DNA of 64,000 nt, taken from assembly GCA_020057115.1 (NCBI GenBank), contig JAGVGJ010000032.1:23722-87721 (forward strand). The letters run 5' to 3'. Source of the stretch: Candidatus Omnitrophota bacterium (lineage in GTDB: Bacteria; Omnitrophota; Gorgyraeia; 2-01-FULL-45-10). Positions 4,234 through 23,581 of the stretch are shown piece by piece; the first letter of the stretch is position 1; every line of letters begins with the position of its first letter. The notes below the pieces were generated by a model. It made no database searches and was not told the DNA's origin. It was given only the letters and a program-made list of their open reading frames with translations. The position numbers and the translations under genes are program-made.

Positions 4234-4239
4234 AATATA

Positions 4240-4268
4240 ATTATACCATTTATAGGAAATAAATGCAA
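4240..4268 (-). promoter_or_regulatory. sigma70-like promoter for Fic paralog 1 (TTGCAT-17nt-TGGTATAAT), near-leaderless
   Basis: The minus-strand sequence reads TTGCATttatttcctataaatggTATAATtatattATG. It has an extended -10 TG and a 17-nt spacer. Confidence 0.4.
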
Positions 4269-4380
4269 CATCAATGATAATTTTATATAAAAAGTATCTT
4301 ATTATTTCCGATAAATTTCCTATTGTATCATACGATACTATCATCCTATTATATTTAGAATCCCAGAAGAATTTCTTAGA

Positions 4381-4477
4381 AAAGATCGGTTCGAACTTTA
4401 TTTTAAAAGAGCGCCGGATAAATTTTTCGTCGGAAGGTACCTTCCGACTCTATTTACCCGACGCCCCTTGTCCTAAC
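4381..4477 (-). repeat. conserved tRNA-Ser trailer element, copy A (contains 18-nt perfect palindrome TCGGAAGGTACCTTCCGA at 4430-4447)
   Basis: It shares about 90% identity with 21201..21329 downstream of tRNA-Ser(UGA), apart from a 33-nt indel. It sits between the tRNA 3' end and the Fic gene. Confidence 0.7.
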
Positions 4478-4569
4478 TGGCGGAGAGATAGGGATTCGAA
4501 CCCTAGGACAGCCTTTCAGCCGTCGCACGCTCTCCAAGCGTGTGCCTTAAACCACTCAGCCATCTCTCC
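4478..4569 (-). tRNA. tRNA-Ser (anticodon GGA), with CCA encoded
   Basis: Reverse complement GGAGAGATGGCTGAGTGGTTTAAGGCACACGCTTGGAGAGCGTG...GGGTTCGAATCCCTATCTCTCCGCCA. It has a long variable arm, a TTCGAAT T-loop and the anticodon loop TTGGAGA. Confidence 0.85.
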
Positions 4570-4572
4570 GCG

Positions 4573-5793
4573 TTAAAAATGATTCTTGAGAATATGATAT
4601 AACTTATCGTTCCTGGTAAAGTTCTCCGTCTTCCAGGAATTTATGATGTGGCTCTTCTCTTTATTCCACAAAGCATAGAATGTCTCCCAGCCGGTCACAG
4701 GCCCTTTCCGGTTGACCCAGGGCGGATTATCTACATACCTGTATATGCCGTCCGGAAATACGGAATTCGCAACGCTCTTATATGTCCAGTATGTCCAGTG
4801 GAAACGGTTCTTCTCGAATATGTAAAGGATGTCCTTCACCCAGACGAGCTCTCCATAATTGCCGTCCCTGCAGTTGACGCCGAACTCTCCCACGTAAAGA
4901 GGGACGTTATGTTTTGAAACATATTTCTTATATTGTTTCGCGAGAAGTTCGATCACGCTCTTGTCCCAGCTGATCTTGTTGACCTTACCGGGATATGTAA
5001 GCCCCGGGATCCAGTTGAACGCGAACTCGGTCGGGACGTATGCATGGACGCTGTAAGCGGTGTTCTTGTCCTTGGGCGTGCCCAAAAAGAAGATCCTGGC
5101 CGACCATTCGCTGCCCTCGAGGAATATGATATGGTTCTGGTCGACGTCGCGTATCTCTTTGGTGACACGCTCATAGAGATCTTTCAATGCAAGCTCCTGG
5201 TGGAGCGGTACTATCGGCTCGTTCAATACGTCATACCCGGCTACGGCGCTTGAGTCCTTATAACGCTCTGCGAGGAAACGCCACAGCCTTAAATACCTGT
5301 CCTGATTGAACGGGTCTTTGAAGAACTCGGGCTCGCCGACGCAGTCGGAATGCCAGTCGGGATTCTGCGCTCCGGGGGCGGCGTGCAGGTCGAGGATGCA
5401 GTAAAGACTGTGCGCTTCGCACCATTCTACGACGCGGTCGAGATATTTAAGGCCTTCCTCATTCAAGCTGAAAGCCCTTTCCTCAAACTCGACCAGGCGG
5501 TAATTGAACGGGACGCGAATGCAATTTGCGCCGGATTCTTTGATAAGTTTTATGTCATGCTCGCGGATGAATGTATCGCGCCACGCCCTGGTGAATTCTT
5601 CGACCGCTTCCCTGCCGGCAGATTTTTCAAGGCCTTCTTTAAATGCTTTCTCCGGTATGTTGCGGCCGCACATCATATAGCCTTCCATCATGAGCCAGCC
5701 GCCCAGGGCGAAGCCCTTGAGGGTGACGGGCCTTCCGGCGTCATCGACTATATCGGTCTTATTTACTTTCAGGAATGGCAGTTTTTTTGGCAT
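4573..5793 (-). CDS. glycoside hydrolase family 5 (cellulase/mannanase-like)
   Basis: It has the GH5 catalytic motifs VLNEP (acid/base Glu) and VGEFG (nucleophile Glu). No obvious signal peptide is present. Confidence 0.7.
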   Translation of the reverse strand: MPKKLPFLKVNKTDIVDDAGRPVTLKGFALGGWLMMEGYMMCGRNIPEKAFKEGLEKSAGREAVEEFTRAWRDTFIREHDIKLIKESGANCIRVPFNYRLVEFEERAFSLNEEGLKYLDRVVEWCEAHSLYCILDLHAAPGAQNPDWHSDCVGEPEFFKDPFNQDRYLRLWRFLAERYKDSSAVAGYDVLNEPIVPLHQELALKDLYERVTKEIRDVDQNHIIFLEGSEWSARIFFLGTPKDKNTAYSVHAYVPTEFAFNWIPGLTYPGKVNKISWDKSVIELLAKQYKKYVSKHNVPLYVGEFGVNCRDGNYGELVWVKDILYIFEKNRFHWTYWTYKSVANSVFPDGIYRYVDNPPWVNRKGPVTGWETFYALWNKEKSHIINSWKTENFTRNDKLYHILKNHF

Positions 5794-9600: not shown

Positions 9601-12600
9601 TCTTGTCTCTTGCCTGAAGTATGCTGATAGCGATCTTTAGATCATTTATGTCATTCTGCATCGGCACTATATTAGCATTCAATTTCTCGACAACGCGCTT
9701 TACGCTGAACCGCGCCTTATCCAGCTCGGCCGTTTTTACAAAACTGACCGCATGACGAAGTTTAGCGTCACCGAGCACCTTCTTAGCTTCACCGGCAAGG
9801 CCTGATTTTGCCCCTTCAAACATAGAAACAGCGTTCTTAAGGTTTCCGACATCCTTCATGCTCGGGACCGGCTTATTCTTTCCAAGGAGGACGACAAGCT
9901 CTGCCTTATGGAGAATCGCATTATTGGTAGCTGTGGCCAGGGCAGCGTCAATGTCTGGGGTGGCCGGCGAGACCGTAAGGTTCATGAAATCTAGGACTTT
10001 AAGCGTTCCGTCTGACATCCTGCCGATATTGCCGAGAATATTGCTCTCGGTATCCACGGTAAAATAGAGGCCTCTGGCCCTTAGACTCTCCAAGAATGAT
10101 TTGGTTTCGGTTTTCAAAGTTTCTCTTGCATTGTCATCTTGAGCCTGTTCCATTTCGTCCAGAAGGGTATTGTTGGCGCGCACCTGGAGTATTATCTTCT
10201 CTCCATTCGTCGCTTCGATCATATCGAAAGCAGCTATCGCGTCACCGCCTGAATCCTTTATCTTCTTTATGGCCTCAGCAAAATCTTTAGCGCCCATCTC
10301 CCTGGTCAACGCGCTCTCCGGAGTCTCTTTACGGCCTGTCATAACGCTCTGGAATCTCTTAAGCTCCACGGGAACCTGTTCATCGCCAGGAGTCCTAAGC
10401 TCAAAGGCTAGCGTATGCCTGCCGACGCCGTCCAGTTCCGCGACCAGCCCGTCTGCTATATCTCCTTTATAGCCTCCCGCGCGGGACGCCATATCGGCTA
10501 CGGCCTTTTGCGGTATGAGCGCCGAGAACCCGACGGCCGAAGGATCACTAATGCTTATGGCTTTACCTTTAACATAATCGACCACCCCGGCAGTGTATTG
10601 TGCGTCGTTCAATTTATTAAGAGCGGCTGTAACGTCTTCTATACGGTAATGGCTCTGCCCGGCCAGGCGGTCTATCTCGGAATTAAGTTTTTTACTTCTA
10701 GCTTCGGGATTATTGGCAGTCCGTTCAAGCTCAGCGCGAAGGTCACGTCTAAGGCCTTTCAGTACATCATTCCGCTCTTTTATCTCGTGCATGAGCTTAG
10801 CTGTAAGCTCCTTCTCTTTACCTTTCTCCAGGAGGCTGCTATCAAGATATATCTGATTCCTGCCCAGGCTATAGTGCGCCTTCTGGCCCCTTATAAATAT
10901 CAATGTCGTATCTTTAAGCATGTCGGCTATACCGAGTGAGCCTATCACTTCTTTAAGAAAAGCCGCTTTTTCGGGCGAATCAAGTCCGTCTATTATATCG
11001 CCTGCCTGGTGTCCGGCATTTTCATCAAGGGTCCTATCAAGCGTTATCCCGGTCTTAACCGCATTGCCTGCGCTAATATTGTAGGCAAGGAACTGGCCTC
11101 GCCGTAATGCAACTTTTATAAGAGTTGTGTAGCTGTCATTGGGCAGATTGTCCGCGCCGCGCCCGCCTACGATCGCAACACCGGCTGCGGCTGCTACGTC
11201 TGTACCCATAAGCCCCGCCAGAGGTCTCCACACGGTTACGACATTGCCTGAGATGCCCATAGCTATATCATCTAGAGTATAGTTCTTCTGCTCTCCTCCT
11301 TTGGTCAGGTTCTCGCAAATAATGTCCTCGCCTCTAACCTCTTTGACCAGCCTTAATGTACCTGAAGCGCTGAGTATGATATCTCCTTTTTGGGGCTGAT
11401 CTATGTTTCCGAGGATATTCGGGGACCTGTTATAAAAATTTGCCAGAAAAATGGATAGCGCCGGGAGATATTGGTCCTCTTTCATGGAGCCGGTGGGCCG
11501 CCACGCGCTTGCCGCGCCTTGTGAAAGCCGTCTATTGATCTGGTCGAGCTTAACGATATCTTCCCTGCCTGTTGAAAGGTTCTCCATGACAACATCATTT
11601 CCATCTATGCTGGTTACGGCCCTCGATGTTCCAGAAGCGCTAAGCATGATATCCCCGGCCTGAAGCTGCGTCCTCCTGCCTAATACTAATGGACCAATAT
11701 TCGAGCATCCTGTAAGAAAAGTTGCCAAAGATGCAGGATAAGCGCCTAAAGCGGGAGCCATTTTCTTTACGGCAGGCCTTGCCGCGATAGCGGCAGCTGG
11801 ACGAGCTGCCGGAGCGGCCTTTGCAATAACCGTTCTGTTCATGAGGCCTTGCGCGCCTTCTTCGTATTTCGCCACATTGCCAAGCGGATCTACTTCCAGT
11901 ATTCCGCCTTTACTGCCACGCTGGCGATAATTGCCGGACATGCCGCCGTCTATACAATATACGTCGCTGTCAAGCCCTGTAAAGTTTTTGATCTCTCCTG
12001 AGCCGACAGCATGCCCTACTATCAATCGGAAATTGACATCCTTGCCAAGGCCCATCTGCTTGCGCATCGCTTCATAAAGTCTTTCTCTGTCACTGCGTTC
12101 TGCTCCTTCGCTGGCCCATTCCTTTGCATATGGCCATATATCCATACCCCTTTCGGCGTCAAAAAACATCCCTATAGCTTCGTCAAGCCCTGCCATAAGA
12201 CCGCCTTTTGTCCCATCGACTTTAGCGGCATTGGCCGGATCATAAACATAATTAAATACTGCCGCGGGGATGCTGGCATGCGCGATTATATTACCGTCAA
12301 CAGCCGCTACGCGTTTGAGATTGAGGAAGAAATCTACAACACCGTCCTTCTTCATGTTCTGGAACGCGGCTCCGAATTCACCATACTTGTCTACTTCGGC
12401 AGAGCTGCCTTTATAATTTTCGTAAAACTCTTGCACTGTATTCATAACATCCATAACCGCTCTGGGGTTGAATCCCAGCTTAAAGGCTATATCCCCGGCC
12501 CTCTCCTGCGCCGTCTTGAGGTCGACCTTCCCCATCGTCCCCATATCTTCAAAAAGTTTTCGCATTACATAATCATGGTTGCCTTCTATGGTGATGACCA

Positions 12601-15600
12601 TGGCCCCTGCGGCTTGGGCCTCCTTTATCATCTTCATGATGAACTTTACAACCGCGACATTCTGTTTACCTCTATCTATATAATCACCTGCGAATGAAAC
12701 GACCTCTCCTTTTTTAAATGTAAATTTTACATTGCCCTGCTTGTCCACGGCTACAATGCCCGCGGCTGCCAGATGTTTTATAAGTTCGTTATAATCGGCA
12801 TACACATCCGGCACCGCCACCAGCCTCGTGGCTCCTATAAAGGCCACAAAGTTCCTATTGGTTTGCGGTGATATCTGTCTTAGCTGTTTAGTAGGCGCGG
12901 CGACGGCAAGGCCTTTCTGCGCGATAGCCTGCCTCATCTGAGGAGAGATCTTTGCGAGCTTTTCAGAGACAACCGCATTATACTTTTCAACAGCCAGCCT
13001 GATATTCTCCTGCGCTTGAGGAGAGAGATAATCGACACCGATGCTTCGCGATAAGATGATCTTGCTCGTCATGACTTCGATACTGAAAGCGATATTTTTA
13101 TACTTAGAATTATCGCGATATTTGTCGTCCAGGTTCTGTATATTACCGATCCCTTTTTCTTCTATCCTGCCATCGGCCGTCACCATGACATTTACTCCGG
13201 CATATCCCTGGCCAGCATTACCGCCCACGGATTCACCTGCAAGGACTTTGTCAAAAGCATTGGACTGCATCATAGCGACATTGTGATCCACTATAACGGC
13301 ACTACCGGCAATAGCGGCCTGCCGGACACCGCGCCCTGCGGCCTGCGCGAGCTCTTCGCTTACCATCCTGTTATGGGCCGCATATGCAAGATTATTGATC
13401 TTCTTGACCGGCTGCGGAGAGCGGCGCGCTAGCGGCGTACTCTGCTCCTGAGCATTTAGCCCATTGACAACTGCCGCGCGCTCCTGTATCTCATGGCGCA
13501 GTTGCTTTGCAAGTTCAGCCGGATCGGCAATATGTTTGGTATCTATGTAATACTGGTTTCTCTGAATACCGTAATGAGTTCCGTAGCATGCCTCGCCTAC
13601 TTGCGTAGAGACGGCATCATCAAGCCCGCCTATGAATAATATCGTCGCATCTTCCCCTAGAAGCGCCCTGTCTTCCTCACTTAAAGCACTCAGGGTGGCA
13701 TTAAGGTTCTTGACTTGCTGCTGGTTAAGGGCCAGCCGGCCGGCCAATGCATTACCGTTGTCAAGATTTAGCTTAGTCCCGGTGAACCTGCCGTCCGCGG
13801 AAGGTTGGATCGCCGTAAAAGATCCCTTCCATATTGCATTCTTTATCGGGTCTGCGTAAAAATCATTATTCATACCCGCGAAACCGCGGGACGGCTCTAC
13901 AGTCGTGCCGGCAACACCGGTAAGGATCGTCATGGTATCAAGTTTTGGCTGAGCAGCGGTCATATCCATAAAACGCGAGACTATGGTCGCCGCGCGAGCT
14001 TTTATTTCTTCGTTGAAATAACTCGGGGCGACAGACCACCTGTCCGGGTGTTTTTTAGAATCGACGGAAACTTCGTAGAAGTCGGCGTCGAAACCTACAA
14101 CGCTGTCCGGATCATAACTCCTGGTATTATTGTCATATCCCATGAAACCGTAATTGTTCTTCGCATTCTGAGTGTCTCTGTCGAAAACGCCGCGGTCCTT
14201 CATCTTATTGAATAGGTTGTTGATGGCCGTCCATATCTTATCCGTCTGGGCCTTCAGATCTTTTTTGCTCCTGTCGGCATCCGCCGTGATCTTTGTGAGC
14301 TTATCGTCGTATTCTTTGCGTTTTACAGGGCTCAATAGCCCCGGCCTTGCTCCGAGAGCGGCGACAGCCCTCTGCATGTCGCTGTCGACTTTTTGCTCTG
14401 CCTGTCTTATGCTTGTCAGCGCTTCATCTACCACCATGACCTTTGTCTGGACTATGGCAAATGGCACGTCTACGACCTGCTCCTGCCCATTTTCATCCAT
14501 TACCGTGAATCGAAGGTTCTCTATGACCTGCGGAACGAATATACTCCCGAGTTTTGCTTTGGCGCCTGCATACTTGCCGGATATGTCCTTCTGCATCTTA
14601 TCGACATCCTCAGGCCTTATCTTGGTCCCGTCCCTCTTTTTGTCCGTCCTGGGAAATTTAACGATTATGGTGCCGTACGTGGGGTCGACCATCTCATAGA
14701 CCAGCATCGAATTCCCCCTCAAGCTGACTATGTCGCCTTTGGCATCTCTCATCACATTGCCGGCCGGGTCTGTCAAATACCTGAGCGGTTTCTGTTGGAG
14801 GTTGCTCTTCACGATATTATTGGTCAGCATGCCAAGCGCATCCACAAGCGCCTTCACATTATCGATGCCATTCACGTCCACCCCGGCCTCTGAAAATGCC
14901 TGGATCATCTGTTTCAGCTGCTCTTCCTTGGTCTCCGGCTCGGACAATATGTCTCTTACTCTCTGCACGTCAAGATCGCTAAGCTTCAGCCGCTGTAATT
15001 CCGCAAATACGTTTATGGAAGTCCCGGGTTTACGCAATAGCGCCATCAGGTCATTCACCGCAAGCCGGTTCAAACCAGCCGCATCTCTCAAAAATGTCTC
15101 AAGCCTTGCGAGCTTCTGATCGCGGGTCATCTCCGGAGTAACAAATACCGAGGCCACCCATTTCGACAATGCGGCCTTTTTCATGGTCTGTTCATAAAGG
15201 ACGGCGTCCGGCATATTGAATCTTGCGCCCTCCCCTTGGGCCCTCTCTAAAACGCTCCTCTGGTATTCTCTTGTTTCGCGGACAAGGTCCCTCAGCTCAT
15301 CCGAAGCCATGCGGTTCAATTCCGCGGCGTGATATCCGGTGAGGCCGTCGACCATGCCGTTGGTGATAGTGGCCGTGCCGGTCTTTGATATCTTTTGGGC
15401 GAATGCCGCCGCCTGCTCGGCGCTAGCAACTATATGGGCATCGCGCATGGTATAACCGCGGTCCCTCCAGTATGCCTCTCGCGCTTCGTGGAAAAGGGAT
15501 TCTTGTTCAAATTTCAGGTTGCCTTTTGCATCAACAAAAGCCGGGCTTGAATTCAGGACTATCACTCTCGTGCCGTCGGAGCTTACAAAATTGAACGCCG

Positions 15601-17668
15601 GGCCCATATCGCTCCCGAGGTCGCTGGTTATCACTTTGGCATCTACGCCGTATGGCTTTGTCGCTACCGCGGCTATAGCGAGCTTTTCGAGCTCCGCCCT
15701 CTTCCTCGCATTAGCATCCAGGGTAGTGACAATCTTAGCGGTAGCCGCAGCAGCGCCGACTCTCTTTAAAGCGGACCCCGCGGTGATATCTTTTTGAAGC
15801 TCTGCCAGCGTTATCTCTGTCCCGTCTTCGCCGTCACCGAAATTCATCTTTTTGCCGTCCGGCAAAAGCAGCTGGACCGCGCCGTCTTCCTCGATCATCG
15901 CCTGTATCCTGACTGCAGCCCTGAAGGCATTGACATTATCCTTGCCCCATACGGCTTCGCCGAGAGATGAGAGCATGGTCGCTATCTGCATAGATGATGC
16001 TGAAGCCATTACAGGCGCCAGTTTATCGACCATTCCCGGCTCCTTGCCTGCGAGCAGGTTAAAATACGGGGATTGGTAACCTTCGTCATTCCTGAAGGTA
16101 GGTATGATAGATACGTAGGAGATATTGTTCTTCTTGAAGAGGTCGCAGAGGTTCTCGGTGTGGAATCCTCCGGAGACTATTACCGCATATTTCTTAGACG
16201 ACGGCGGGGCGCGCTCTCCAGGGAGGCCCATCTTCATATTCTTCAAGAATGCATCATCCCTCTTGAATGAATAGGCGTAAAATTCGGATATCTCATTCCT
16301 GTAGGCGTCGAGCTCATCGATACCGTCCGAAAGCTTTGCCTGTATCTTCCACTTCGGCGCTTGGTTTTCAATAAAGGATTTGAAGTTCTTTACGGCAAAT
16401 GAGCCTTCATTTGCGAGATAATATTTATAGTCATCTCTTGTTATCGCGATATTGAATATGTTCTTCGTGAGGGTGAGGTTCTTTGAGAGTTCATCCAGCT
16501 TCCTCTGGTCATCGTTCTGGTAGAGGCCTTCCTTTATCTTGGATTCGAGGGCCGCCATCTCTTCGAGTATCTTCGCCTTGTCGATGGCCTGGTACAGGGA
16601 TATATATACTATATATTTCTGGAGTTCCGGCATATCCTTGATCTCTATATTCGCGATCTTCGCCTTTTTTAATAGATATGTGTAAAAGTCGCCTTGCGCT
16701 ATTTTTTCTGCCTGGAATTCCACCGTCATAACCACCAATTCTTCGAGCTGCTTCTTGGGAAGGGATTTCTGAAGCAGATCGACAAGTTTCGACTTCTCAG
16801 TATCTGCCTTCTTGAAATCTATCCCGCCTTCCTGTTCGAGCGACTGCTGCAACAGATACAGGTTCGTATAGCTCTTTATGTTGATTGCCTGGCGATTGCC
16901 GTATTTCACGAGACAGAGGACATAGTCCTTGAAATCGAGCTTATTCTCTTTATATTCGGTGAACTTCTTGTCCAGATCGAGGAGCTCCGGTGGATAGAGT
17001 TTATTCTTTATGTTACCTAATATATAGCTGATCTCATTCAAGTACTTATCGACCTTATCCTTATATTTAAGGGAGTTTTTATAGACTTTGAGGTTATCGA
17101 CATAGAGCTTCGTGTCTTCAACGCCCCACAGAGCCGCCTTGTTCGGATTATTTATCGCAAAATACTCGGCGCCGTTCACGAGCCCGTCCTTTACGAAGTA
17201 GTCGCTCACGCGTTCCCTGGTATCGGGATCATTTATGGAGTCGAATATTGCAAGATCATAATCTCCGACACCACCTTCAAGATTTACAGAACGGATGCCA
17301 TATTCCTTATTAAAGTAATCGATCAGTTCGGATAGCTTGCGCTGGCAGGCGTAGTTGCAATGGGCATCCTGTATATGTATGACGGTCGTTGAAGACCCCG
17401 CATCATAACTATCTCTTATATGCCCCAGATTCTGAGGCAGGCTGAATGTCTTTACATTAAGCTCTTTGGTAGAGCTTGGGCTGCCCGGTTCCTCTGAGCC
17501 GACGCTCGTAAGCTCTGGAGTTGCCCTGGCAGCCCACGCTCTTTCTACAAGGGTATCGACCCCCCCTGTAGTAAACAAAAAGGACCACAAAGTGATGATC
17601 GAGATCACCTTTAATGGCCCTTTCCTGCTTATATGATTACTGCGGCTATCAGCCCGAGCGTCTTTCAT
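6647..17668 (-). CDS. giant secreted/anchored multidomain protein (3,673 aa): possible TIKI/ChaN-like region, PPP-type metallophosphatase domain, PP2C/SpoIIE-type phosphatase domain, tandem SH3-like modules, paired HEIxER modules
   Basis: A single uninterrupted ORF with an ATG start at 17666-17668 and a GAAGGGG RBS. The N-terminus has a TM/signal segment VISIITLWSFLFTTGGV. GxxH-like motifs HIQDAH (aa ~97) and SGGFH (aa ~499) suggest a TIKI/ChaN-like fold. GDYIDRG (aa 1661) and GNHD (aa 1696) mark the PPP domain. GGDWHSF (aa 2871), GDVSGHG (aa 2892) and NAGGMP (aa 2995) mark the PP2C domain. Confidence 0.85.
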   Translation of the reverse strand: MKDARADSRSNHISRKGPLKVISIITLWSFLFTTGGVDTLVERAWAARATPELTSVGSEEPGSPSSTKELNVKTFSLPQNLGHIRDSYDAGSSTTVIHIQDAHCNYACQRKLSELIDYFNKEYGIRSVNLEGGVGDYDLAIFDSINDPDTRERVSDYFVKDGLVNGAEYFAINNPNKAALWGVEDTKLYVDNLKVYKNSLKYKDKVDKYLNEISYILGNIKNKLYPPELLDLDKKFTEYKENKLDFKDYVLCLVKYGNRQAINIKSYTNLYLLQQSLEQEGGIDFKKADTEKSKLVDLLQKSLPKKQLEELVVMTVEFQAEKIAQGDFYTYLLKKAKIANIEIKDMPELQKYIVYISLYQAIDKAKILEEMAALESKIKEGLYQNDDQRKLDELSKNLTLTKNIFNIAITRDDYKYYLANEGSFAVKNFKSFIENQAPKWKIQAKLSDGIDELDAYRNEISEFYAYSFKRDDAFLKNMKMGLPGERAPPSSKKYAVIVSGGFHTENLCDLFKKNNISYVSIIPTFRNDEGYQSPYFNLLAGKEPGMVDKLAPVMASASSMQIATMLSSLGEAVWGKDNVNAFRAAVRIQAMIEEDGAVQLLLPDGKKMNFGDGEDGTEITLAELQKDITAGSALKRVGAAAATAKIVTTLDANARKRAELEKLAIAAVATKPYGVDAKVITSDLGSDMGPAFNFVSSDGTRVIVLNSSPAFVDAKGNLKFEQESLFHEAREAYWRDRGYTMRDAHIVASAEQAAAFAQKISKTGTATITNGMVDGLTGYHAAELNRMASDELRDLVRETREYQRSVLERAQGEGARFNMPDAVLYEQTMKKAALSKWVASVFVTPEMTRDQKLARLETFLRDAAGLNRLAVNDLMALLRKPGTSINVFAELQRLKLSDLDVQRVRDILSEPETKEEQLKQMIQAFSEAGVDVNGIDNVKALVDALGMLTNNIVKSNLQQKPLRYLTDPAGNVMRDAKGDIVSLRGNSMLVYEMVDPTYGTIIVKFPRTDKKRDGTKIRPEDVDKMQKDISGKYAGAKAKLGSIFVPQVIENLRFTVMDENGQEQVVDVPFAIVQTKVMVVDEALTSIRQAEQKVDSDMQRAVAALGARPGLLSPVKRKEYDDKLTKITADADRSKKDLKAQTDKIWTAINNLFNKMKDRGVFDRDTQNAKNNYGFMGYDNNTRSYDPDSVVGFDADFYEVSVDSKKHPDRWSVAPSYFNEEIKARAATIVSRFMDMTAAQPKLDTMTILTGVAGTTVEPSRGFAGMNNDFYADPIKNAIWKGSFTAIQPSADGRFTGTKLNLDNGNALAGRLALNQQQVKNLNATLSALSEEDRALLGEDATILFIGGLDDAVSTQVGEACYGTHYGIQRNQYYIDTKHIADPAELAKQLRHEIQERAAVVNGLNAQEQSTPLARRSPQPVKKINNLAYAAHNRMVSEELAQAAGRGVRQAAIAGSAVIVDHNVAMMQSNAFDKVLAGESVGGNAGQGYAGVNVMVTADGRIEEKGIGNIQNLDDKYRDNSKYKNIAFSIEVMTSKIILSRSIGVDYLSPQAQENIRLAVEKYNAVVSEKLAKISPQMRQAIAQKGLAVAAPTKQLRQISPQTNRNFVAFIGATRLVAVPDVYADYNELIKHLAAAGIVAVDKQGNVKFTFKKGEVVSFAGDYIDRGKQNVAVVKFIMKMIKEAQAAGAMVITIEGNHDYVMRKLFEDMGTMGKVDLKTAQERAGDIAFKLGFNPRAVMDVMNTVQEFYENYKGSSAEVDKYGEFGAAFQNMKKDGVVDFFLNLKRVAAVDGNIIAHASIPAAVFNYVYDPANAAKVDGTKGGLMAGLDEAIGMFFDAERGMDIWPYAKEWASEGAERSDRERLYEAMRKQMGLGKDVNFRLIVGHAVGSGEIKNFTGLDSDVYCIDGGMSGNYRQRGSKGGILEVDPLGNVAKYEEGAQGLMNRTVIAKAAPAARPAAAIAARPAVKKMAPALGAYPASLATFLTGCSNIGPLVLGRRTQLQAGDIMLSASGTSRAVTSIDGNDVVMENLSTGREDIVKLDQINRRLSQGAASAWRPTGSMKEDQYLPALSIFLANFYNRSPNILGNIDQPQKGDIILSASGTLRLVKEVRGEDIICENLTKGGEQKNYTLDDIAMGISGNVVTVWRPLAGLMGTDVAAAAGVAIVGGRGADNLPNDSYTTLIKVALRRGQFLAYNISAGNAVKTGITLDRTLDENAGHQAGDIIDGLDSPEKAAFLKEVIGSLGIADMLKDTTLIFIRGQKAHYSLGRNQIYLDSSLLEKGKEKELTAKLMHEIKERNDVLKGLRRDLRAELERTANNPEARSKKLNSEIDRLAGQSHYRIEDVTAALNKLNDAQYTAGVVDYVKGKAISISDPSAVGFSALIPQKAVADMASRAGGYKGDIADGLVAELDGVGRHTLAFELRTPGDEQVPVELKRFQSVMTGRKETPESALTREMGAKDFAEAIKKIKDSGGDAIAAFDMIEATNGEKIILQVRANNTLLDEMEQAQDDNARETLKTETKSFLESLRARGLYFTVDTESNILGNIGRMSDGTLKVLDFMNLTVSPATPDIDAALATATNNAILHKAELVVLLGKNKPVPSMKDVGNLKNAVSMFEGAKSGLAGEAKKVLGDAKLRHAVSFVKTAELDKARFSVKRVVEKLNANIVPMQNDINDLKIAISILQARDKKLLNAATAALKDAEELRAAEDKSIEDIRQEALKANEGVEAIDLNVALDMLVNLNAAGIVQKEAVDALRGQMKINILDRVQLQMATAAITKALELSKAADVIDNAINKEIVKHNKTLLSKDVMETLEEHNDAESMARAISMFGVTSEEFNAIQTELDKGIKTQNVDIFRKQMIQNPFDAANAAGGDWHSFAESKDGRFALMEMGDVSGHGIQGAIVGCILYRIAKDFRYPMNGKMMTAIEAIETIASTMPEGDQVGQTKKVLSAYQAYLQAAMSLELAKVGLGSTRMFITYNSVLIDNRLKRTYDYNAGGMPIAVISRDVPTDLTAKIKEIMSDAMLTNESDKRAAVDKYIADNITSESSKKKATALGFVREKAIEPLKNIDMLDPNQVETLLPAYARANIIVKDNVRAIVFANDRFNEAMDAERNDIYDPADFKVGSYAPFTDKTANDYFLMKASHEALQIAAGKSTIDSMAKNMVKKDVIQPDGTVKTVDSIVHDDANLLIYRLSDVRRPVVPAAPTAMVVTPAVEKAAITPEDKITQYLLEAGEALKRLRDTGLEEHFTAAASSLNKAVEMDPKLGGIPTATIAHFAVDFLQAPAKDKTAFRKFLSKLDPALRAESRAKAKALFTIYEKDYDAGKYKMNATLYPDADGSVGTLEVAGYDELGPIDESKKVLDTSGQSISTSGVIGPVVPSPTSLVASPYSQALDRIVAEQLIPGSKLDQAALNNAAKDVLGSLTKNSALTADKVIKQLLEALDSSPLSAENKQMIEASLRFVVIAESLSSAWPNKLNVVVQFLPDLGLKAPGTNIGNRAGGVIEKDFNVSAKSIIGMEDASDFEIADIITKAAKAMEAAAAPKDARAIVFLPKKLEKTFSLVMKDLAEKNTPGLDRVRVVSIDTAGEFPDTATFFAFGIKLLDYDRLTAEERAAQDHQDLLNMIALVASGKEDPKDILKKIFEKGYTLPIRKINFNDIKAWKRAQDAVLMSL

Positions 17669-17915
17669 GGTGGCTTAGCCCCTTCTTTCATTTTATAAAT
17701 ACTTTTTAAATCTTTAAATTATCTCCTCTAAAAAAATGCCTTTCCGAGCGTCGCTTCGGTCCAGCTTACTTCGAGCGTCCTTCAATTATAAGTTTACCTG
17801 ATGGATATGAAAATACAAGGAAACTTAGCTAGCTTTTTTCAATACTAACATTTGCTAGTTTTTCGGATAGAATTGGAGGCATGTGAGGCGGCGTCGGTAT
17901 CAGAGATACCGACAT

Positions 17916-17947
17916 CCGCCATATTTTTCAGAAGAAAAATATGGCGG
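17916..17947. repeat. 14-bp perfect inverted repeat CCGCCATATTTTTC-agaa-GAAAAATATGGCGG overlapping the 3' end of tRNA-Ser(CGA)
   Basis: The sequence is read directly. The right arm is the tRNA acceptor 3' strand plus CCA. A second hairpin (GGCGGCGTCGGTATC-agag-ATACCGAC..) follows at ~17885-17915. Confidence 0.5.
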
Positions 17948-18031
17948 AGAGGGAGAGATTTGAACTCTCGTACCCCGTTAGGGGTAACACGCTTTCGAGG
18001 CGTGCGCGATCAACCGCTCTGCCACCTCTCC
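17942..18031 (-). tRNA. tRNA-Ser (anticodon CGA), with CCA encoded
   Basis: Reverse complement GGAGAGGTGGCAGAGCGGTTGATCGCGCACGCCTCGAAAGCGTG-long arm-GAGAGTTCAAATCTCTCCCTCTCCGCCA. Confidence 0.85.
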
Positions 18032-18262: not shown

Positions 18263-18667
18263 CTACAATTCCTGCCTGGCCCATATGTAGAACCTCTCGG
18301 CCTGTTTTAAGATCTCGAGAGCATCGTGTTGTGAAAAAACCGCATTGTCATATTCTATCAAAGACTTCTTCGCCAGAATACGGCGAAATGCGCTTAACTT
18401 ATCACCGACTCCATCGATCTTAAGATTCTGCTTCATAAGGTCCAGCGCAACCATATGGTCTCTGTCTATCGACCTCCTCCCGCCATATCTGACAAGAAGC
18501 GCATCGGCTATCGAAATAGCGCAATGTACCGCATTCAATCCAACCGCACTCCAGTAACCTTCTTTCTCAGCGTGAAGCATGGACTTATAGAATTCCTCTG
18601 CCTTCTTCTTATAATTCAAGTATTGAGACCTGTCGACTTCCGCTGTTTTAACCTTCTTCGATGTCAT
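18263..18667 (-). CDS. HEPN-domain protein (putative toxin of HEPN/MNT pair)
   Basis: It is a small 134-aa protein with an Rx4-6H-like motif (RRSIDRDH). It overlaps the upstream MNT gene by 4 nt (ATGA). Confidence 0.6.
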   Translation of the reverse strand: MTSKKVKTAEVDRSQYLNYKKKAEEFYKSMLHAEKEGYWSAVGLNAVHCAISIADALLVRYGGRRSIDRDHMVALDLMKQNLKIDGVGDKLSAFRRILAKKSLIEYDNAVFSQHDALEILKQAERFYIWARQEL

Positions 18668-19317
18668 ATTACCAACCTTTCAAGAGGCCTCCCCTGGACC
18701 AGTATATAAGCGCTCAGGATCTCTTTTACTATCGGCTCATTATCTTTATGCCTTCTCTTAAATTGATCTATCGATAATACATATGGCACGATCGCGGTCT
18801 GAAAATCACGAGCTACTGCATCTGCTATCAGGTCGAGGCTCTCCTCAACTTTCTCTTTGTCCCTAACGCTGCCGAGGACTACGATCAAGTCTATGTCGCT
18901 CTTTGGCCCCTCTCTTCTCCTGGCTACGCTTCCGAAAATAGCCACTGTCTCGACAGTCGCTTTCGGACGCGATACCGCTTTTTTTATAAGGGCCGTAACG
19001 GCAGGTAATATACTTTTCTCCTTTTCAAAGAAAGGCTTTACAAGGACCTTTACAATGTAGCTATCCGTATTAAGCGAGTAAAGATAGGCCTTACCTGCGG
19101 ACGAGGCTTTCACAACCCCGTCTTCTTTCAGGCTATTGAGGAATTTATTTATGGTAGTCGGGCTCGCGGTGAGAAGCCTTGCAAGCTGCCGCCCTGTCAA
19201 TCCGGCGCTTTCCTTGCACAGTATGCGTAATATGCCGGTCTTCAGCTTGTGATCGAACACCCTGTCGAGCGCATTATATATAAGCATGGGGTTTTCCTTG
19301 TCCATTAAATTGGACAT
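18664..19317 (-). CDS. nucleotidyltransferase (MNT/pol-beta superfamily) with N-terminal winged-helix domain (putative antitoxin)
   Basis: It has the GS-x(n)-DxD nucleotidyltransferase motif GSVARRREGPKSDIDLIVV. The N-terminal HTH-like region is TGRQLARLLTASPTTINKFLNSL. Confidence 0.65.
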   Translation of the reverse strand: MSNLMDKENPMLIYNALDRVFDHKLKTGILRILCKESAGLTGRQLARLLTASPTTINKFLNSLKEDGVVKASSAGKAYLYSLNTDSYIVKVLVKPFFEKEKSILPAVTALIKKAVSRPKATVETVAIFGSVARRREGPKSDIDLIVVLGSVRDKEKVEESLDLIADAVARDFQTAIVPYVLSIDQFKRRHKDNEPIVKEILSAYILVQGRPLERLVI

Positions 19318-19349
19318 ATGTCCACTATTATGGATATAGGATACCTTAT

Positions 19350-19375
19350 TTAACGGCCCTTGTCAAGGGGCGGGC
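19350..19375 (-). promoter_or_regulatory. putative promoter/operator of MNT-HEPN operon: -35 TTGACA embedded in palindrome CCCTTGACAAGGG
   Basis: It lies about 45 nt upstream of the MNT start codon. The sequence was read on the minus strand. Confidence 0.35.
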
Positions 19376-19431
19376 TCACTATTTCTGCTATCTTTTCTTC
19401 GCCTCTGCTGCCATCCTGGCTACTAATGCAA

Positions 19432-19481
19432 ACGTCCTGTTTAGGTACATCCTACTCGCAGGATGTACCTAAACAGGACGT
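19432..19481. repeat. 22-bp perfect inverted repeat with 6-nt loop (ACGTCCTGTTTAGGTACATCCT-actcgc-AGGATGTACCTAAACAGGACGT)
   Basis: The sequence is read directly. It is the strongest hairpin in the window and lies between the Fic2 cassette and the MNT/HEPN operon. Confidence 0.8.
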
Positions 19482-19495
19482 CCGATCATTTTACT

Positions 19496-19553
19496 TTACC
19501 CGTCGCCCCGTGTCTTAACTGGCGGTGTGTTCTCGAGTTTGTTCGAACTCACT
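19496..19553 (-). repeat. orphan copy of the tRNA-Ser trailer element (first ~27 nt) fused to a degenerate tRNA 3'-end remnant (GAGTTCGAACAAACTC...ACCGCCA)
   Basis: TTACCCGTCGCCCCGTGTCTTAACTGG matches 21303-21329 at 25 of 27 positions. The adjoining sequence retains a T-arm-like hairpin and ...CCGCCA. Confidence 0.55.
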
Positions 19554-19566
19554 TTATGAAAGAAAG

Positions 19567-19605
19567 TGTCATTGCGAGCCCCGCCGCAGGCGAGGCAAAG
19601 CAATC
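19567..19605 (-). repeat. REP-like element copy (GATTGCTTTG-hairpin-CTCGCAATGACA family), reverse orientation
   Basis: The motif matches the copies at 22266, 23595 and 25092. Confidence 0.6.
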
Positions 19606-19850
19606 TATCAAAGAAAAAAGTCTTTAACGCTTGGCTCGGCCCGGCCACAGGCCGGGCGCGTCCTCGCCACACACTCTGAAGCGTAATAATGTATGCATAA
19701 CGGCTAAAGGCTCATCCGCCCCACCTCAGCCTACAACTTGCCAACTACATGGGGCTTCGGTGGTTGCCGAGCCCCTCACCCCAAAAGATCTTGAGGCAAA
19801 AAGAACAAAAATGCCTCAATGGGCAGAATTTGGTTAAAAAGACCTTTCTT

Positions 19851-21011
19851 TTACTTCTCTCCTAATAAATCTAGCAATTCTTTGGCGCAAAAAACTTTCC
19901 CCCACCTCTTATTACTAGCTCCAGAAAGTATTTTCATCTCTTGCAGCTTCTTAACCGCGGCTTTGGCAGTGGGATAGCTAGTTTCTAATTTTTTAGCTGC
20001 ATAGGGAATCGTAACAAATGGATTCAAGAAAACTTGATCCAACAGTTTTAATGCATATGTTGATCCTCTATCTTTTTGAATAAGCTTACGATATTTATCT
20101 AATAGTTTAAGTATCGATTTAGAATTTTCTATGGCGTCCTTCGATTGGACTGCCACTGCCCGCAAGAAAAACTTAGCCCATTCTTCCCATTCGCCATTCT
20201 CGCTTACAGCTAATAGTCTTTCATAGTATTCGCTGCGATATTTCTCAAAAAAAGCACTGAGATAAAGCATGGGATATACCAAATATTCTCTTTCGCCTAA
20301 GAATAGAGTGGTAAGTAGCCTGCCCATCCTTCCGTTACCATCTAAAAATGGATGGATCGCTTCAAATTGATAATGGATCAAAGCGCATTGTATAAGACCG
20401 GGGAAATTATTTCTATCGTGCAAGAACTTTTCAAAATGCCCTAACGCATCGTTCATTTCACGTACAGGCGGTGGTACAAATTTTGCATTGTTTAGAGTGC
20501 ATCCCGCGGGACCTATCCAATTTTGGCTGCGCCTAAATTCGCCGAGAGTCAGATGCTCTCCTCTTACCCCCCTCATTAACTCTCTGTGGATCTCTCTAAT
20601 AAGACGAAGAGAAAGAGGAAGTTCTTTTAATCTTTGAATTCCATAGTTTATCGCTTTTACATAATTAACTACTTCGAGGACATCTGTTTTTTTAACCTCT
20701 TTTTGTTTTTCTTCCTTATTCGCTGCTTCAAAATAAAAAAGATCCGATAGGGATGCTTGAGTGCCCTCAATTTTCGAACTGAGAACAGCTTCTCTTTTAA
20801 TATAGGGCGTTATAAGGAGGTTGGGGTTAGGTAGTAACGCGCCAACACCTGAGAGATTGCCTAATTGACGATCGGCCTCAGAAAGCAAATTAACCATTTC
20901 TTTGCCGTAGACAATAGCTGGCGGAAGTGGGTTAGGCACAAAAGCCCAATAATCTCTTTCTGTTTTTATTATTTTTCCGGCTTTGCTATTTTTAAACCTG
21001 GCTATATCCAT
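19851..21011 (-). CDS. Fic/DOC family protein (class II), paralog 2
   Basis: It has the canonical HPFLDGNGRMGRL motif and the inhibitory SSKIEGT motif. The start is an ATG. Confidence 0.85.
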   Translation of the reverse strand: MDIARFKNSKAGKIIKTERDYWAFVPNPLPPAIVYGKEMVNLLSEADRQLGNLSGVGALLPNPNLLITPYIKREAVLSSKIEGTQASLSDLFYFEAANKEEKQKEVKKTDVLEVVNYVKAINYGIQRLKELPLSLRLIREIHRELMRGVRGEHLTLGEFRRSQNWIGPAGCTLNNAKFVPPPVREMNDALGHFEKFLHDRNNFPGLIQCALIHYQFEAIHPFLDGNGRMGRLLTTLFLGEREYLVYPMLYLSAFFEKYRSEYYERLLAVSENGEWEEWAKFFLRAVAVQSKDAIENSKSILKLLDKYRKLIQKDRGSTYALKLLDQVFLNPFVTIPYAAKKLETSYPTAKAAVKKLQEMKILSGASNKRWGKVFCAKELLDLLGEK

Positions 21012-21064
21012 AATTTCCTAATATTTTGCGCCTCACCGATAATAGGTAGTTAGCCCCAGCTTTA

Positions 21065-21125
21065 AGTATACTTTAGACTTTTAAAGAAATCAAGCTTTTT
21101 CTTTAATTGCTATTTTAGCAATTAA
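21065..21125 (-). promoter_or_regulatory. Fic2 promoter (TTGATT-17nt-TATACT) with upstream 23-nt palindrome TTAATTGCTA-ttt-TAGCAATTAA (candidate operator)
   Basis: The -10 is at 21065-21070, the -35 at 21088-21093 and the palindrome at 21103-21125 on the minus strand. Confidence 0.45.
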
Positions 21126-21200
21126 AGTACCTTATAATTCTATTTCAACCTCTTTCTCAAGTTTTTAGGGACATGCCATTTTACGCCCCCTATTGCCCCG

Positions 21201-21329
21201 AAAAAGATCGGTTCGAACTTTATTTTATCCCTCGCATTCGCTCGGGACGCTTCGCAGAAAGAGCGCCGGATAAATTTTTCGTCGGAAGGTACCTTCCGAT
21301 TCTTCTTACCCGACGCCCCGTGTCTTAAC
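21201..21329 (-). repeat. conserved tRNA-Ser trailer element, copy B (palindrome TCGGAAGGTACCTTCCGA at 21282-21299; carries 33-nt insertion relative to copy A)
   Basis: The alignment to 4381-4477 was done by eye. Confidence 0.7.
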
Positions 21330-21419
21330 TGGCGGAGGAGGTAGGATTCGAACCCACGGAGGCATTGCTGCCTCAACAGTTTTCAAGACTGCCGCGATCA
21401 ACCGCTCTGCCACTCCTCC
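21330..21419 (-). tRNA. tRNA-Ser (anticodon UGA), with CCA encoded
   Basis: Reverse complement GGAGGAGTGGCAGAGCGGTTGATCGCGGCAGTCTTGAAAACTGTTGAGGCAGCAATGCCTCCGTGGGTTCGAATCCTACCTCCTCCGCCA. Confidence 0.85.
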
Positions 21420-21524
21420 ACCCTAAAACGCCTAAAGAACAATTTTTCCCGCCAAACAACTTTATTGTAAAACTATGCGTCTTTAAAGAGGAGTTTGTCG
21501 GGACTCCCTCGCTTCGCTCGGTCG

Positions 21525-21560
21525 CAAGACTGCCGCGATCAACCGCTCTGCCACTCCTCC
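21525..21560 (-). pseudogene. partial duplicate of tRNA-Ser(UGA): 5' half only (positions 1 to ~36, ends inside the anticodon loop) plus ~30 nt of its upstream region
   Basis: GGAGGAGTGGCAGAGCGGTTGATCGCGGCAGTCTTG is identical to the 5' part of the full tRNA located 105 nt away. The upstream flank (cgggaaaactgttctttagatattttgtg) is also duplicated with about 80% identity. Confidence 0.7.
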
Positions 21561-21592
21561 GCACAAAATATCTAAAGAACAGTTTTCCCGTT

Positions 21593-22306: not shown

Positions 22307-23581
22307 TTACGGTTTAATGACCTCTTTACCGTCCATGTAAGGGACGAGCGCTTTCGGTATGCGGACAGATCCGTCCGCATTCTGGTAATTCTCCAGGATC
22401 GCCACGACGAGCCTTGCCAGCGCAACGCCCGAACCATTGAGCGTGTGGATATAACTCATCTTCTTCGACTCTTTCTGGCGGTAGCGTATATTCGCCCGGC
22501 GCGCCTGGAAGTCGGTGAAGCAGGAGCAGCTTGATACTTCGAGATATGAATTCACCCCGGCCGCGAACAGCTCTATGTCATAGCATTTGGCCGCGGAGAA
22601 TGATATGTCGCCCGTAGCCAATAGGACGACCCTATATGGCAGCTCAAGCGCCTGGAGCACGTCTTCCGCATCTTTAACAAGGCTCTCGAGTTCATCGAAT
22701 GATGTTTTGGGCCTCACGAACTTCACCATCTCGACTTTGTCGAACTGGTGGACCCTTATCAAACCCTTTGTATCTTTACCGTATGATCCGGCCTCGCGCC
22801 TGAAACATGCGGTATAAGCAGTATAGCGGATGGGCAGCTTGTCCTCATCCAGCACTTCGCCTGAGAGCATGTTCGTGACAGGGACCTCTGCGGTAGGTAT
22901 GAGAAAAAGGTCGTCATCTTTTAATTTGTACATGTCCTCTTCAAGTTTCGGGAGCTGGCCTGTCCCTGTCATGCTGCGCCTGTTTACCAAAAACGGCGGG
23001 AATATCTCCGTATAGCCATGCTTTTTTGTGTGCATGTCCAGCATGAAATTTATGAGCGCCCGCTCCAGGCGCGCGCCGGCTCCTTTAAATAATACGAAGT
23101 TTGAGCCTGTTATCTTTGCCGCGATACCGAAACATATAATATCAAGTATTTCGCTAAGCTCAATATGGGTCCTTGGAGTAAAGTTAAATTTAGGAATATT
23201 GCCCCATGAACGGACTATTTTATTGGCCTGCGGGCTGCCTACAGGTACGGATTTATCTGGTATATTTGGGATAGAATACATAAATGAGGCCATTTTTTCA
23301 TCAATTTCCCCCACTTTATTATCTAATTCGCCTATTTTTTGGGAAACTGACTTCATTCTCTCTATAACCTCTTTTGCATTCTTCTTCTCCTTCATAAGGA
23401 TCGATATCTCATCGTTCGCCTTATTCCTCTGGGCCTTAAGCTCCTCGACCTCTACCAATAGCTTTCTGCGGCCCTCATCCAGGGCCAATAATTCATCTAC
23501 ATTGATCTTCAGCAGGTTCCTGTTCTTAAGGGCCTCTTTGACCAGGTTGCTATTTTCTCTTATGAACTTTATATCCAACAT
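22307..23581 (-). CDS. serS: seryl-tRNA synthetase
   Basis: It has an N-terminal coiled-coil arm (MLDIKFIRENSNLVKEALKNR...). The class II core motifs and length (424 aa) are typical of SerRS. Confidence 0.85.
   Translation of the reverse strand: MLDIKFIRENSNLVKEALKNRNLLKINVDELLALDEGRRKLLVEVEELKAQRNKANDEISILMKEKKNAKEVIERMKSVSQKIGELDNKVGEIDEKMASFMYSIPNIPDKSVPVGSPQANKIVRSWGNIPKFNFTPRTHIELSEILDIICFGIAAKITGSNFVLFKGAGARLERALINFMLDMHTKKHGYTEIFPPFLVNRRSMTGTGQLPKLEEDMYKLKDDDLFLIPTAEVPVTNMLSGEVLDEDKLPIRYTAYTACFRREAGSYGKDTKGLIRVHQFDKVEMVKFVRPKTSFDELESLVKDAEDVLQALELPYRVVLLATGDISFSAAKCYDIELFAAGVNSYLEVSSCSCFTDFQARRANIRYRQKESKKMSYIHTLNGSGVALARLVVAILENYQNADGSVRIPKALVPYMDGKEVIKP

Follow-up and report, generated by a model that had tools for sequence, protein, structure and literature searches.

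In a 64,000-nucleotide (nt) stretch of a Candidatus Omnitrophota contig (JAGVGJ010000032.1), here called the window, a copy of a tRNA-Ser trailer is fused to a sequence resembling a tRNA 3′ end at positions 19496-19553. This orphan is probably the att-type distal junction of a 1.8-kb cassette that has no integrase, resembles a cis-mobilizable element (CIME), carries the SoFic-type gene Fic2 and sits at the 3′ end of tRNA-Ser(UGA). Our best reading makes the junction attR-type or inter-cassette. Directly observed are the repeat that brackets the cassette, homologues of both cassette ends elsewhere, a link to an integrase elsewhere and a break of synteny at the locus.

A direct repeat brackets Fic2

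The orphan reads TTACCCGTCGCCCCGTGTCTTAACTGGCGG directly joined to TGTGTTCTCGAGTTTGTTCGAACTCACT, as it had been described from the letters alone. A repeat search of the window pairs 19496-19525 with 21306-21335 as a 30-nt direct repeat, identical at 29 positions (97%) and spaced by 1810 bp. The 27-mer TTACCCGTCGCCCCGTGTCTTAACTGG, searched with up to 3 mismatches, has three matches in the 64-kb window, at 19496 (0 mismatches), 21306 (1) and 4454 (3), and shuffled sequences give a chance expectation of 0.00. The sequence-only reading had named a similarity below random expectation as grounds for its refutation, and the similarity is not of that kind. It had put the identity to its element B at 25/27; the identity stands and the count becomes 26/27 when the UGA trailer is compared and 24/27 for the GGA trailer.

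The repeat consists of the last 6 nt of tRNA-Ser(UGA), which are TGGCGG or, in minus-strand reading, CCGCCA, followed by trailer sequence for 24 nt. On the minus strand all three window copies start with CCGCCA, which at 21330 and 4478 is the encoded 3′ end of tRNA-Ser(UGA) and tRNA-Ser(GGA), respectively. The trailers of these two genes are homologous over about 125 nt with 92-100% identity by blastn, apart from a 30-nt GC-rich insertion at 21228-21257 in the UGA trailer. Both fold as a long hairpin around TCGGAAGGTACCTTCCGA (z -3.3 and -5.0), and each is followed by a Fic gene, Fic1 (3121-4344) after GGA and Fic2 after UGA. The trailer of tRNA-Ser(CGA) at 17942 differs from both.

Fic2 is the sole open reading frame (ORF) of at least 120 amino acids (aa) between the repeats, so the earlier picture of an imperfect direct repeat bracketing 1.8 kb with Fic2 alone is borne out. 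Its remark that no integrase is present holds as well. Pfam finds no recombinase domain within about 10 kb (ORFs between 2 and 30 kb of the window scanned), and when the integrases of two related loci, L082 and L181, are searched by tblastn in the entire window, the best E is 0.88. Since neither an integrase nor a homologue of these linked integrases is in the window, we class the cassette as a CIME-type relic.

Fic2 matches the PADLOC SoFic profile PDLC03963 over residues 20-383 of 386, that is, in full length, and Fic1 matches SoFic more weakly (E 2.4e-53). Against the NCBIfam SoFic equivalog Fic2 scores 194.6 bits at a cut-off of 550, so it is a relative and not an equivalog. The gene has a GC content of 0.37-0.42 and its flanks have about 0.45-0.55. 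Its closest homologues are 94, 92 and 90% identical in aa, and the best homologue of the 220-aa neighbour gene is 87% identical in aa, the copy on the source contig excluded; serS is 69-77% identical in aa to GTDB genomes. These differences and the low GC mark Fic2 as foreign DNA.

For comparison we fetched 187 loci (labelled with L numbers), among them metagenome contigs and Omnitrophota relatives. The minus-strand order in the window is archease, RtcB, serS, the 220-aa ORF, tRNA-Ser(UGA), Fic2, a helix-turn-helix (HTH)-nucleotidyltransferase (NTase) with HEPN, tRNA-Ser(CGA) and a 3673-aa ORF, and serS (22307-23581) is 68-77% identical in aa to serS of Candidatus Omnitrophota metagenome-assembled genomes. 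Genome contigs scanned with the 220-aa protein gave no match and those scanned with serS gave distant relatives alone, at most 77% aa, and neither the 220-aa ORF nor Fic2 had an exact protein match on a recorded contig. In relatives, serS, an ORF of about 220 aa and tRNA-Ser(UGA) are followed by tRNA-Ser(CGA) after 20 bp (L001) or 356 bp (L003), and the same distance is 3.3 kb in the window; in L004 the tRNA-Ser pair is 5.3 kb apart with ordinary genes between. As the spacing differs among relatives, the interval is variable and the window's 3.3 kb accessory, in comparisons of the L001/L003 type with distant relatives (serS 68-69% aa). Interrupted synteny and deviant composition, marks of a genomic island, are both found here.

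The pseudo-tRNA end and its relatives

Neither ARAGORN nor Rfam at E<=10 reports a tRNA at 19496-19620, in agreement with the earlier statement that the orphan is no longer a foldable tRNA. No cloverleaf or collinear multi-arm tRNA remnant was detected at the orphan; only the T-loop-like GTTCGAA and CCGCCA align. In a MAFFT alignment its GTGAGTTCGAA faces the real T-arm, GTGGGTTCGAA, and 5 nt are inserted ahead of the acceptor part. The T-arm-like hairpin is weak (-13.1 kcal/mol, z = -0.85), no better than that of shuffled sequence.

Counted from the T-loop-like G, the CCA end is reached after 29 nt in the orphan and in its L082 and L175 versions, and after 24 nt in real tRNAs. The central 10 nt between box A (GTTCGAAC) and box B (ACACACCGCCA) differ among the three versions, which looks like two conserved boxes rather than a decaying tRNA. 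Because the same boxes and the same non-tRNA length recur in three independent contexts, the pseudo-tRNA end appears to be a feature carried by the element. This recurrence, together with a repeat that is mostly trailer, leaves the earlier idea of an eroded third copy or a decayed tRNA 3′ end unsupported. What marks the far boundary is a 29/30 repeat of which only CCGCCA is tRNA, and the T-arm-like part is element-carried and not a native fragment. The tRNA 3′-end repeat once taken for attL/attR remains att-like, and with 6 nt of tRNA it is not the classical displaced tRNA 3′ fragment.

Beyond CCGCCA the orphan retains the first ~40 nt of the trailer, to GATCGGA, and a perfect 22-bp inverted repeat comes next. 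This hairpin is terminator-like on the minus strand and lies just upstream of the NTase promoter. No other copy of it occurs in the window and none in the 187 loci. A 58-aa ORF overlapping the orphan (19496-19672) is considered spurious, as the homologous stretch of L082 has no called gene.

The Fic of L082 is 94% identical in aa to Fic2, and Fic2 with 134 nt upstream aligns to L082 at 90% over 1348 nt. On its plus strand L082 carries phage replication genes, a tape measure gene, an excisionase-like HTH gene, a tyrosine integrase gene (8613-9707), Fic, Bro-N, a 63-aa ORF and ABC-F, a housekeeping gene. The left boundary of the cassette, between integrase and Fic, is ATCCCTATCTCTCCGCCAGTT, composed of the final 18 nt of a tRNA-Ser gene and GTT and identical to the end of the window's tRNA-Ser(GGA); trailer-like sequence follows. 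A second ACACACCGCCATTGTT directly follows Fic, and the two copies bracket Bro-N and the 63-aa ORF.

After the Bro-N block and just before ABC-F, L082 reads ...GTTCGAACTGAGTTGAGAACACACCGCCA joined to TTGTTTTTG. This right end, a GTCATTGCGAG-type repeat and then GTTCGAAC-N10-ACACACCGCCA, is syntenic with window 19520-19640. The pseudo-end is 86% identical to L082 12925-12953, and the similarity breaks exactly after CCGCCA. The sequence TTGTTGACGCTCAGGCGAACCC after the first ACACACCGCCATTGTT end in L082 equals the trailer of tRNA-Ser(UGA) in L007. The same L007 trailer contains box B in inverse form (GGCGGTGTGTTC), 59 nt from the tRNA and immediately ahead of a methyltransferase gene. Upstream of that tRNA, at ~7650-7950 of L007, a stretch of about 250 nt is duplicated next to a masked N run (two ...TTTTCCCGCCAGCTATCAA, minus strand).

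The loci L175-177, whose Fic is 92% identical in aa, represent the same tRNA-Ser locus in a related species, and their downstream tRNA-Ser(CGA) is 88% identical in nt to the window's. Here the pseudo-end, CCGCCA and the trailer are contiguous just upstream of Fic, in an attP-like arrangement, and L175 63-132 is 75.7% identical to the orphan over 74 nt. The pseudo-end and trailer of L175 form the left arm of a 158-nt palindrome with arms 80% complementary and a DNA fold of -65.9 kcal/mol (z -12.9).

The motif GTTCGAAC-N10-ACACACCGCCA occurs once in the window and, among the 187 loci, only in L082/83 and L175-177. In L082 and L175 it terminates or precedes near-identical Fic cassettes. The footprint of a mobile cassette suggested earlier is thus upheld by the Fic2 homologue beside the L082 integrase, the recurring end motif and the near-adjacent tRNA-Ser genes of distant relatives.

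The recurrent unit is Fic with about 120-135 nt upstream, and it is found in at least six different contexts. It adjoins a prophage integrase (L082-84), precedes the same tRNA-Ser(CGA) in a related species (L175-177), belongs to a restriction-modification (RM)-Fic-HTH-integrase island (L181-183, in the order Fic-HTH-57 aa-integrase in L181) and follows a helicase-like gene (L187). In L178 direct repeats of the mnmE 3′ end, 211 nt long and 91% identical (9603-9813 and 11311-11521), enclose a Fic2 homologue (80% aa) alone, and in L085 inverted repeats of about 150 nt (~860-1000 and ~2800-2950) flank another (90% aa). The integrases of L082 and L181 are 47% identical to each other.

Further downstream in L178, at 16938-17196, the gidA 5′ end is also duplicated, and the L178 locus makes a second insertion hotspot, with a Fic-only cassette. 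In L085, where Fic neighbours MazG-like, helicase and HNH genes, the module has another vehicle. A metagenome protein scan with Fic2 gave more distant loci, all at most 71% identical among the matches listed, and in about 10 of 80 a tRNA or tmRNA lies no more than ~500 nt away. Among viruses, Fic relatives do not exceed 39% identity. Scans of viral sequences gave 0 matches for the trailer pattern and for the pseudo-end pattern, and a metagenome scan for the trailer pattern CCCGNCGCCCCNTGTCNTAACTGG gave 0 matches.

The upstream block of Fic2 has a near-consensus promoter, TTGATT-17-TATACT (21093-21065), and overlapping palindromes at 21081-21127. These palindromes, TTAAAGAAA-N8-TTTCTTTAA and CTTTAATTGCTA-TTT-TAGCAATTAAAG, cover the -35 element of the Fic promoter in all contexts. 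The 27-bp TTAAAGAAA-N8-TTTCTTTAA was considered as a recombinase core and dropped, since it has one window copy only and overlaps the -35; an operator is more likely. In L181 the palindrome lies at 2635-2661 and a second copy, 81% identical, at 5582-5608 after the integrase, so that the pair brackets Fic-HTH-integrase.

Features of the cassette and its surroundings in the window (a dot marks a feature without strand)
Feature	Position	Strand	Basis or remark
tRNA-Ser(UGA), intact, anchor of the attL-type side	21330..21419	-	ARAGORN; Rfam tRNA 49.3 bits
Direct-repeat copy 1	21306..21335	-	CCGCCA tRNA 3′ end and first 24 nt of trailer; 29/30
Trailer of tRNA-Ser(UGA)	21202..21329	-	Long hairpin around centre TCGGAAGGTACCTTCCGA; ends with GTTCGAAC box (21210-21217)
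Fic2 promoter/operator block	21012..21145	-	Common to every close Fic homologue (blastn L082/L175/L178/L181/L085)
Fic2, SoFic-type Fic/AMPylase defence gene	19851..21011	-	Pfam Fic_N and Fic; PADLOC SoFic E 4.4e-120
GTCATTGCGAG-type hairpin repeat in the right-end region of the cassette	19563..19640	.	Syntenic with L082 12833-12891
Pseudo-tRNA end of the cassette	19520..19553	-	Box A GTTCGAAC (19541-19548), 10 nt, box B ACACACCGCCA (19520-19530)
Direct-repeat copy 2 (19496-19525) with trailer-like continuation to GATCGGA (19481-19487)	19481..19525	-	Repeat search, blastn to L175, alignments
Perfect 22-bp inverted repeat, 6-nt loop	19432..19481	.	In place of the trailer's central hairpin; RNA fold z -7.7
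Second accessory module, HTH-nucleotidyltransferase and HEPN, with own promoter	18263..19386	-	Pfam; PADLOC PDC-M05A
tRNA-Ser(CGA), far boundary of the variable interval	17942..18031	-	ARAGORN
tRNA-Ser(GGA) (4478-4569) with third trailer copy (4380-4477)	4380..4569	-	Then Fic1 (3121-4344)

A model for the junction and its rivals

The 3′ end of tRNA-Ser(UGA) would have been the recombination partner of a circular element whose attP was made of the pseudo-tRNA end GTTCGAAC-N10-ACACACCGCCA and the trailer, with the exchange at CCGCCA or immediately behind it. The catalyst would be a tyrosine integrase from a larger element such as the L082 prophage. The attL side would then run tRNA-CCGCCA-trailer-Fic2 from 21335 downward, and the attR side would be the pseudo-end and CCGCCA followed by the pre-existing sequence behind the tRNA, from 19553 to 19481. 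The L175 order of pseudo-end, CCGCCA, trailer and Fic would relate to the window as attP to attL and attR, and it is by this relation that the orphan is read as the distal junction of the Fic cassette. We infer the recombination event, the crossover point, placed from where the similarity breaks, and any present-day mobility, which for such a relic would need help in trans.

On this model an empty site would join tRNA-Ser(UGA)...CCTCCTCCGCCA to GTTAAGACACGGGGCGACGGGTAAAGTAAAATGATCGG, and a circle junction would join ...GTTCGAACAAACTCGAGAACACACCGCCA to GTTAAGACACGGGGCGTCGGGTAAGAAGAATCGGAAGG. The 24-40 nt of trailer-like sequence after the orphan CCGCCA may be a shared att core; alternatively, by tandem accretion, an earlier cassette alongside may have its left end there. 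The latter origin is plausible because of the tandem layout of L082. If L082 arose by accretion, its prophage would be expected to have on the left an intact tRNA-Ser that finishes in ATCCCTATCTCTCCGCCA.

Several points weigh against this model. Only 6 nt of the repeat come from the tRNA and all else is trailer, which departs from the classical displaced tRNA 3′ fragment, and the window keeps no integrase, excisionase or other element gene. No empty-site allele of a close strain and no circular junction were retrieved, the closest contig (L081, 84% aa) ending 34 nt past the 220-aa gene, just upstream of the expected tRNA. The Fic and promoter module occurs also without these ends (L085 between its inverted repeats, L187 and L181), so that Fic2 could have been swapped in by homologous recombination. 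There is no second pseudo-end between HEPN and tRNA-Ser(CGA), which leaves the tandem-array version incomplete, and the trailer, a good terminator-like hairpin, might be a native feature mimicked by the element.

It is unlikely that the trailer and pseudo-end are a palindromic repeat, a terminator or a module like a miniature inverted-repeat transposable element (MITE), that is multicopy for its own reasons, with Fic2 brought between two copies by homologous recombination or module swap and no site-specific integration here. The near-perfect L175 palindrome, the long hairpins of the trailers, the several Fic contexts devoid of these ends and the commonness of GTCATTGCGAG-type hairpin repeats in this genome are what such a repeat would explain. 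However, the three window copies and those of L082, L175 and L007 all start exactly at the ...CCGCCA end and none is free-standing, and the L082 ends adjoin a tyrosine integrase and bracket successive cargo blocks. The window has only three copies in 64 kb and the 80 serS loci of other Omnitrophota have none. Nor is a target-site duplication seen, and this copy number and fixed position do not fit a MITE or a repetitive extragenic palindromic (REP) type.

An orphan kept for a present function, as a terminator or insulator between Fic2 and the NTase-HEPN operon or as a promoter element whose trailer likeness reflects shared function, is very unlikely. It does sit between two transcription units next to the terminator-like perfect hairpin, and has a weak promoter-like match at 19516-19488. 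Yet it lacks the 3′ arm of the trailer hairpin, so the trailer structure cannot form, and a function here leaves the conserved pseudo-tRNA box and its recurrence at cassette ends elsewhere unexplained.

Most improbable of all, and largely refuted by Rfam, the gene count of relatives and the alignment of pseudo-ends, is a third tRNA-Ser gene, a local duplicate of tRNA and trailer, that eroded in place. The T-loop-like GTTCGAA and the CCGCCA end followed by the same trailer invite this idea, as does a partial duplicate of the tRNA-Ser(UGA) 5′ half (21525-21563) already in the locus. But the same 29-nt non-tRNA version with box B is kept next to the ABC-F gene in L082 and in L175-177, no anticodon or variable-arm remnant is found, no tRNA scores at E<=10, and the locus of relatives has two tRNA-Ser genes only.

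A wider version of the cassette model is doubtful. It holds that Omnitrophota have integrase-less defence cassettes of one or few genes that insert at tRNA-Ser CCA ends via a palindromic attP of ~160 bp and accumulate in arrays resembling integrons, which phage-type tyrosine integrases move in trans, with the orphan (19481-19553) as an inter-cassette junction. Its attP may combine GTTCGAAC-N10-ACACACCGCCA with a hairpin at the centre and with TGGCGGTGTGT as inverted partner, and its cargo may be SoFic-type Fic, Bro-N and possibly RM and NTase-HEPN.

The second accessory module probably does not own the orphan trailer. Its nucleotidyltransferase matches the PADLOC candidate system PDC-M05A, and its closest relative, L184, is 85% identical over 18465-19386. 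With the homology ending at 19386, the hairpin and the orphan fall outside the NTase-HEPN module, and a link to it is unsupported.

Known islands, the tRNA-Ser locus and meaning

Displaced tDNA fragments as end-markers of islands are the basis of Islander (PMC4383910). Like Islander-type islands, the cassette lies between an intact tRNA and a direct repeat, carries low-GC accessory cargo, interrupts synteny and has cargo relatives beside tyrosine integrases. Unlike them, its repeat is the last 6 nt of the tRNA with 24 nt downstream, no integrase is present and one gene fills the 1.8 kb.

CIMEs and tandem accretion are known, for example, from ICESt1-related elements (reviewed in PMC5704250). 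As in a CIME, candidate att-like sites are kept and integration and transfer genes are gone, and the repeats would be functional att sites. As in accretion, L082 presents an integrase-bearing element and then integrase-less cassettes each ending in the same att-like sequence, and this abutting of a prophage integrase and a Fic cassette appears compatible with CIME mobilization in trans. Unlike CIMEs, the integrase-bearing neighbour in L082 is a prophage, an origin from an integrative and conjugative or an integrative and mobilizable element is putative at most, and the host belongs to the Omnitrophota, known only from metagenomes.

The Dehalococcoides ssrA locus has tandem islands with and without an integration module (PMC3146451). 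These too stand in tandem behind a small-RNA gene, are bounded by a short direct repeat of its 3′ end, often lack the integration module and have a conserved non-target motif just upstream of each repeat, to be compared with box A and box B. In contrast to the window, they use a serine recombinase and the tmRNA T-loop, are much larger and carry reductive dehalogenases.

Integron cassettes are likewise single-gene, integrase-less and arrayed, with imperfect palindromes between and a tyrosine recombinase at one end. However, the L181 integrase scores 26.9 bits against the IntI model TIGR02249, whose cut-off is 265, and the L082 integrase does not match it. The attC layout is absent as well: by inspection there is no RYYYAAC...GTTRRRY pair in attC order, GTTAAGA follows CCGCCA on the 5′ side, and the break comes after CCGCCA and not at R′. 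An integron cassette is hence rejected.

SoFic is a published single-gene abortive-infection AMPylase that acts against phages (PMC12249575). Fic2 would have a similar defence activity. Unlike in E. coli, where the antitoxin AS1 lies downstream, no small ORF after Fic2 is common to the window and its relatives, the homology ending ~34-44 nt past the stop, and AS1 itself was not searched for by sequence. Phage mv4 (10.1101/2023.11.06.565760) is also a temperate element with a tRNA-Ser 3′ end as attB and a tyrosine integrase; its Lactobacillus host is unrelated and the likeness is one of description.

The tRNA-Ser(UGA) gene is itself partly duplicated. Its 5′ half and ~27 nt upstream recur at 21525-21589 (versus 21384-21449, 88% over 66 nt), 141 bp upstream of the intact gene, and the identity breaks off within the anticodon, past G35. 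A GC-rich CGAGCGAAGCGAGGG-type repeat lies in the 75 nt that separate the copies. A model of 3′-end integration leaves this duplicate unexplained.

At the other boundary (17915-17948), the tRNA-Ser(CGA) 3′ end is one arm of a perfect 15-bp hairpin, TCCGCCATATTTTTC/GAAAAATATGGCGGA. This inverted tRNA end just downstream of the gene recalls how CCGCCA...TGGCGG is symmetrical in the L175 palindrome. Immediately after tRNA-Ser(CGA), the minus strand has the single 3673-aa ORF (6647-17668), whose sole Pfam match is a weak Metallophos (E 8.7e-6). CCA is encoded in all four tRNA genes of the window and not in the tRNA-Ser genes of several Omnitrophota relatives (L001, L005, L006 and L111 compared).

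Hairpin repeats of the GTCATTGCGAG...CTCGCAATGAC type lie at 19568, 22293, 23618 and 25125 of the window, at 12680-12900 of L082 and at ~690 of L185. They sit in the gaps after the 220-aa ORF, serS and RtcB, and are apparently a repeat family typical of Omnitrophota.

In kind, the feature is already known as an ordinary tRNA-island scar. The palindromic att-like region and the recurrent Fic-only cassettes bounded by repeats of a target 3′ end are mildly unusual and modest novelties. Read as a cassette boundary, the orphan explains how the genome of an uncultured Omnitrophota gained a SoFic-type gene against phages and why genomes differ in the interval between two tRNA-Ser genes. The motif GTTCGAAC-N10-ACACACCGCCA with the trailer makes a signature by which Omnitrophota metagenomes can be searched for the boundaries of cassettes, for empty sites and for circular forms. 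Should the palindromic site function as an attP that is served in trans, it would amount to a compact shuttle for defence genes in a phylum without genetics.

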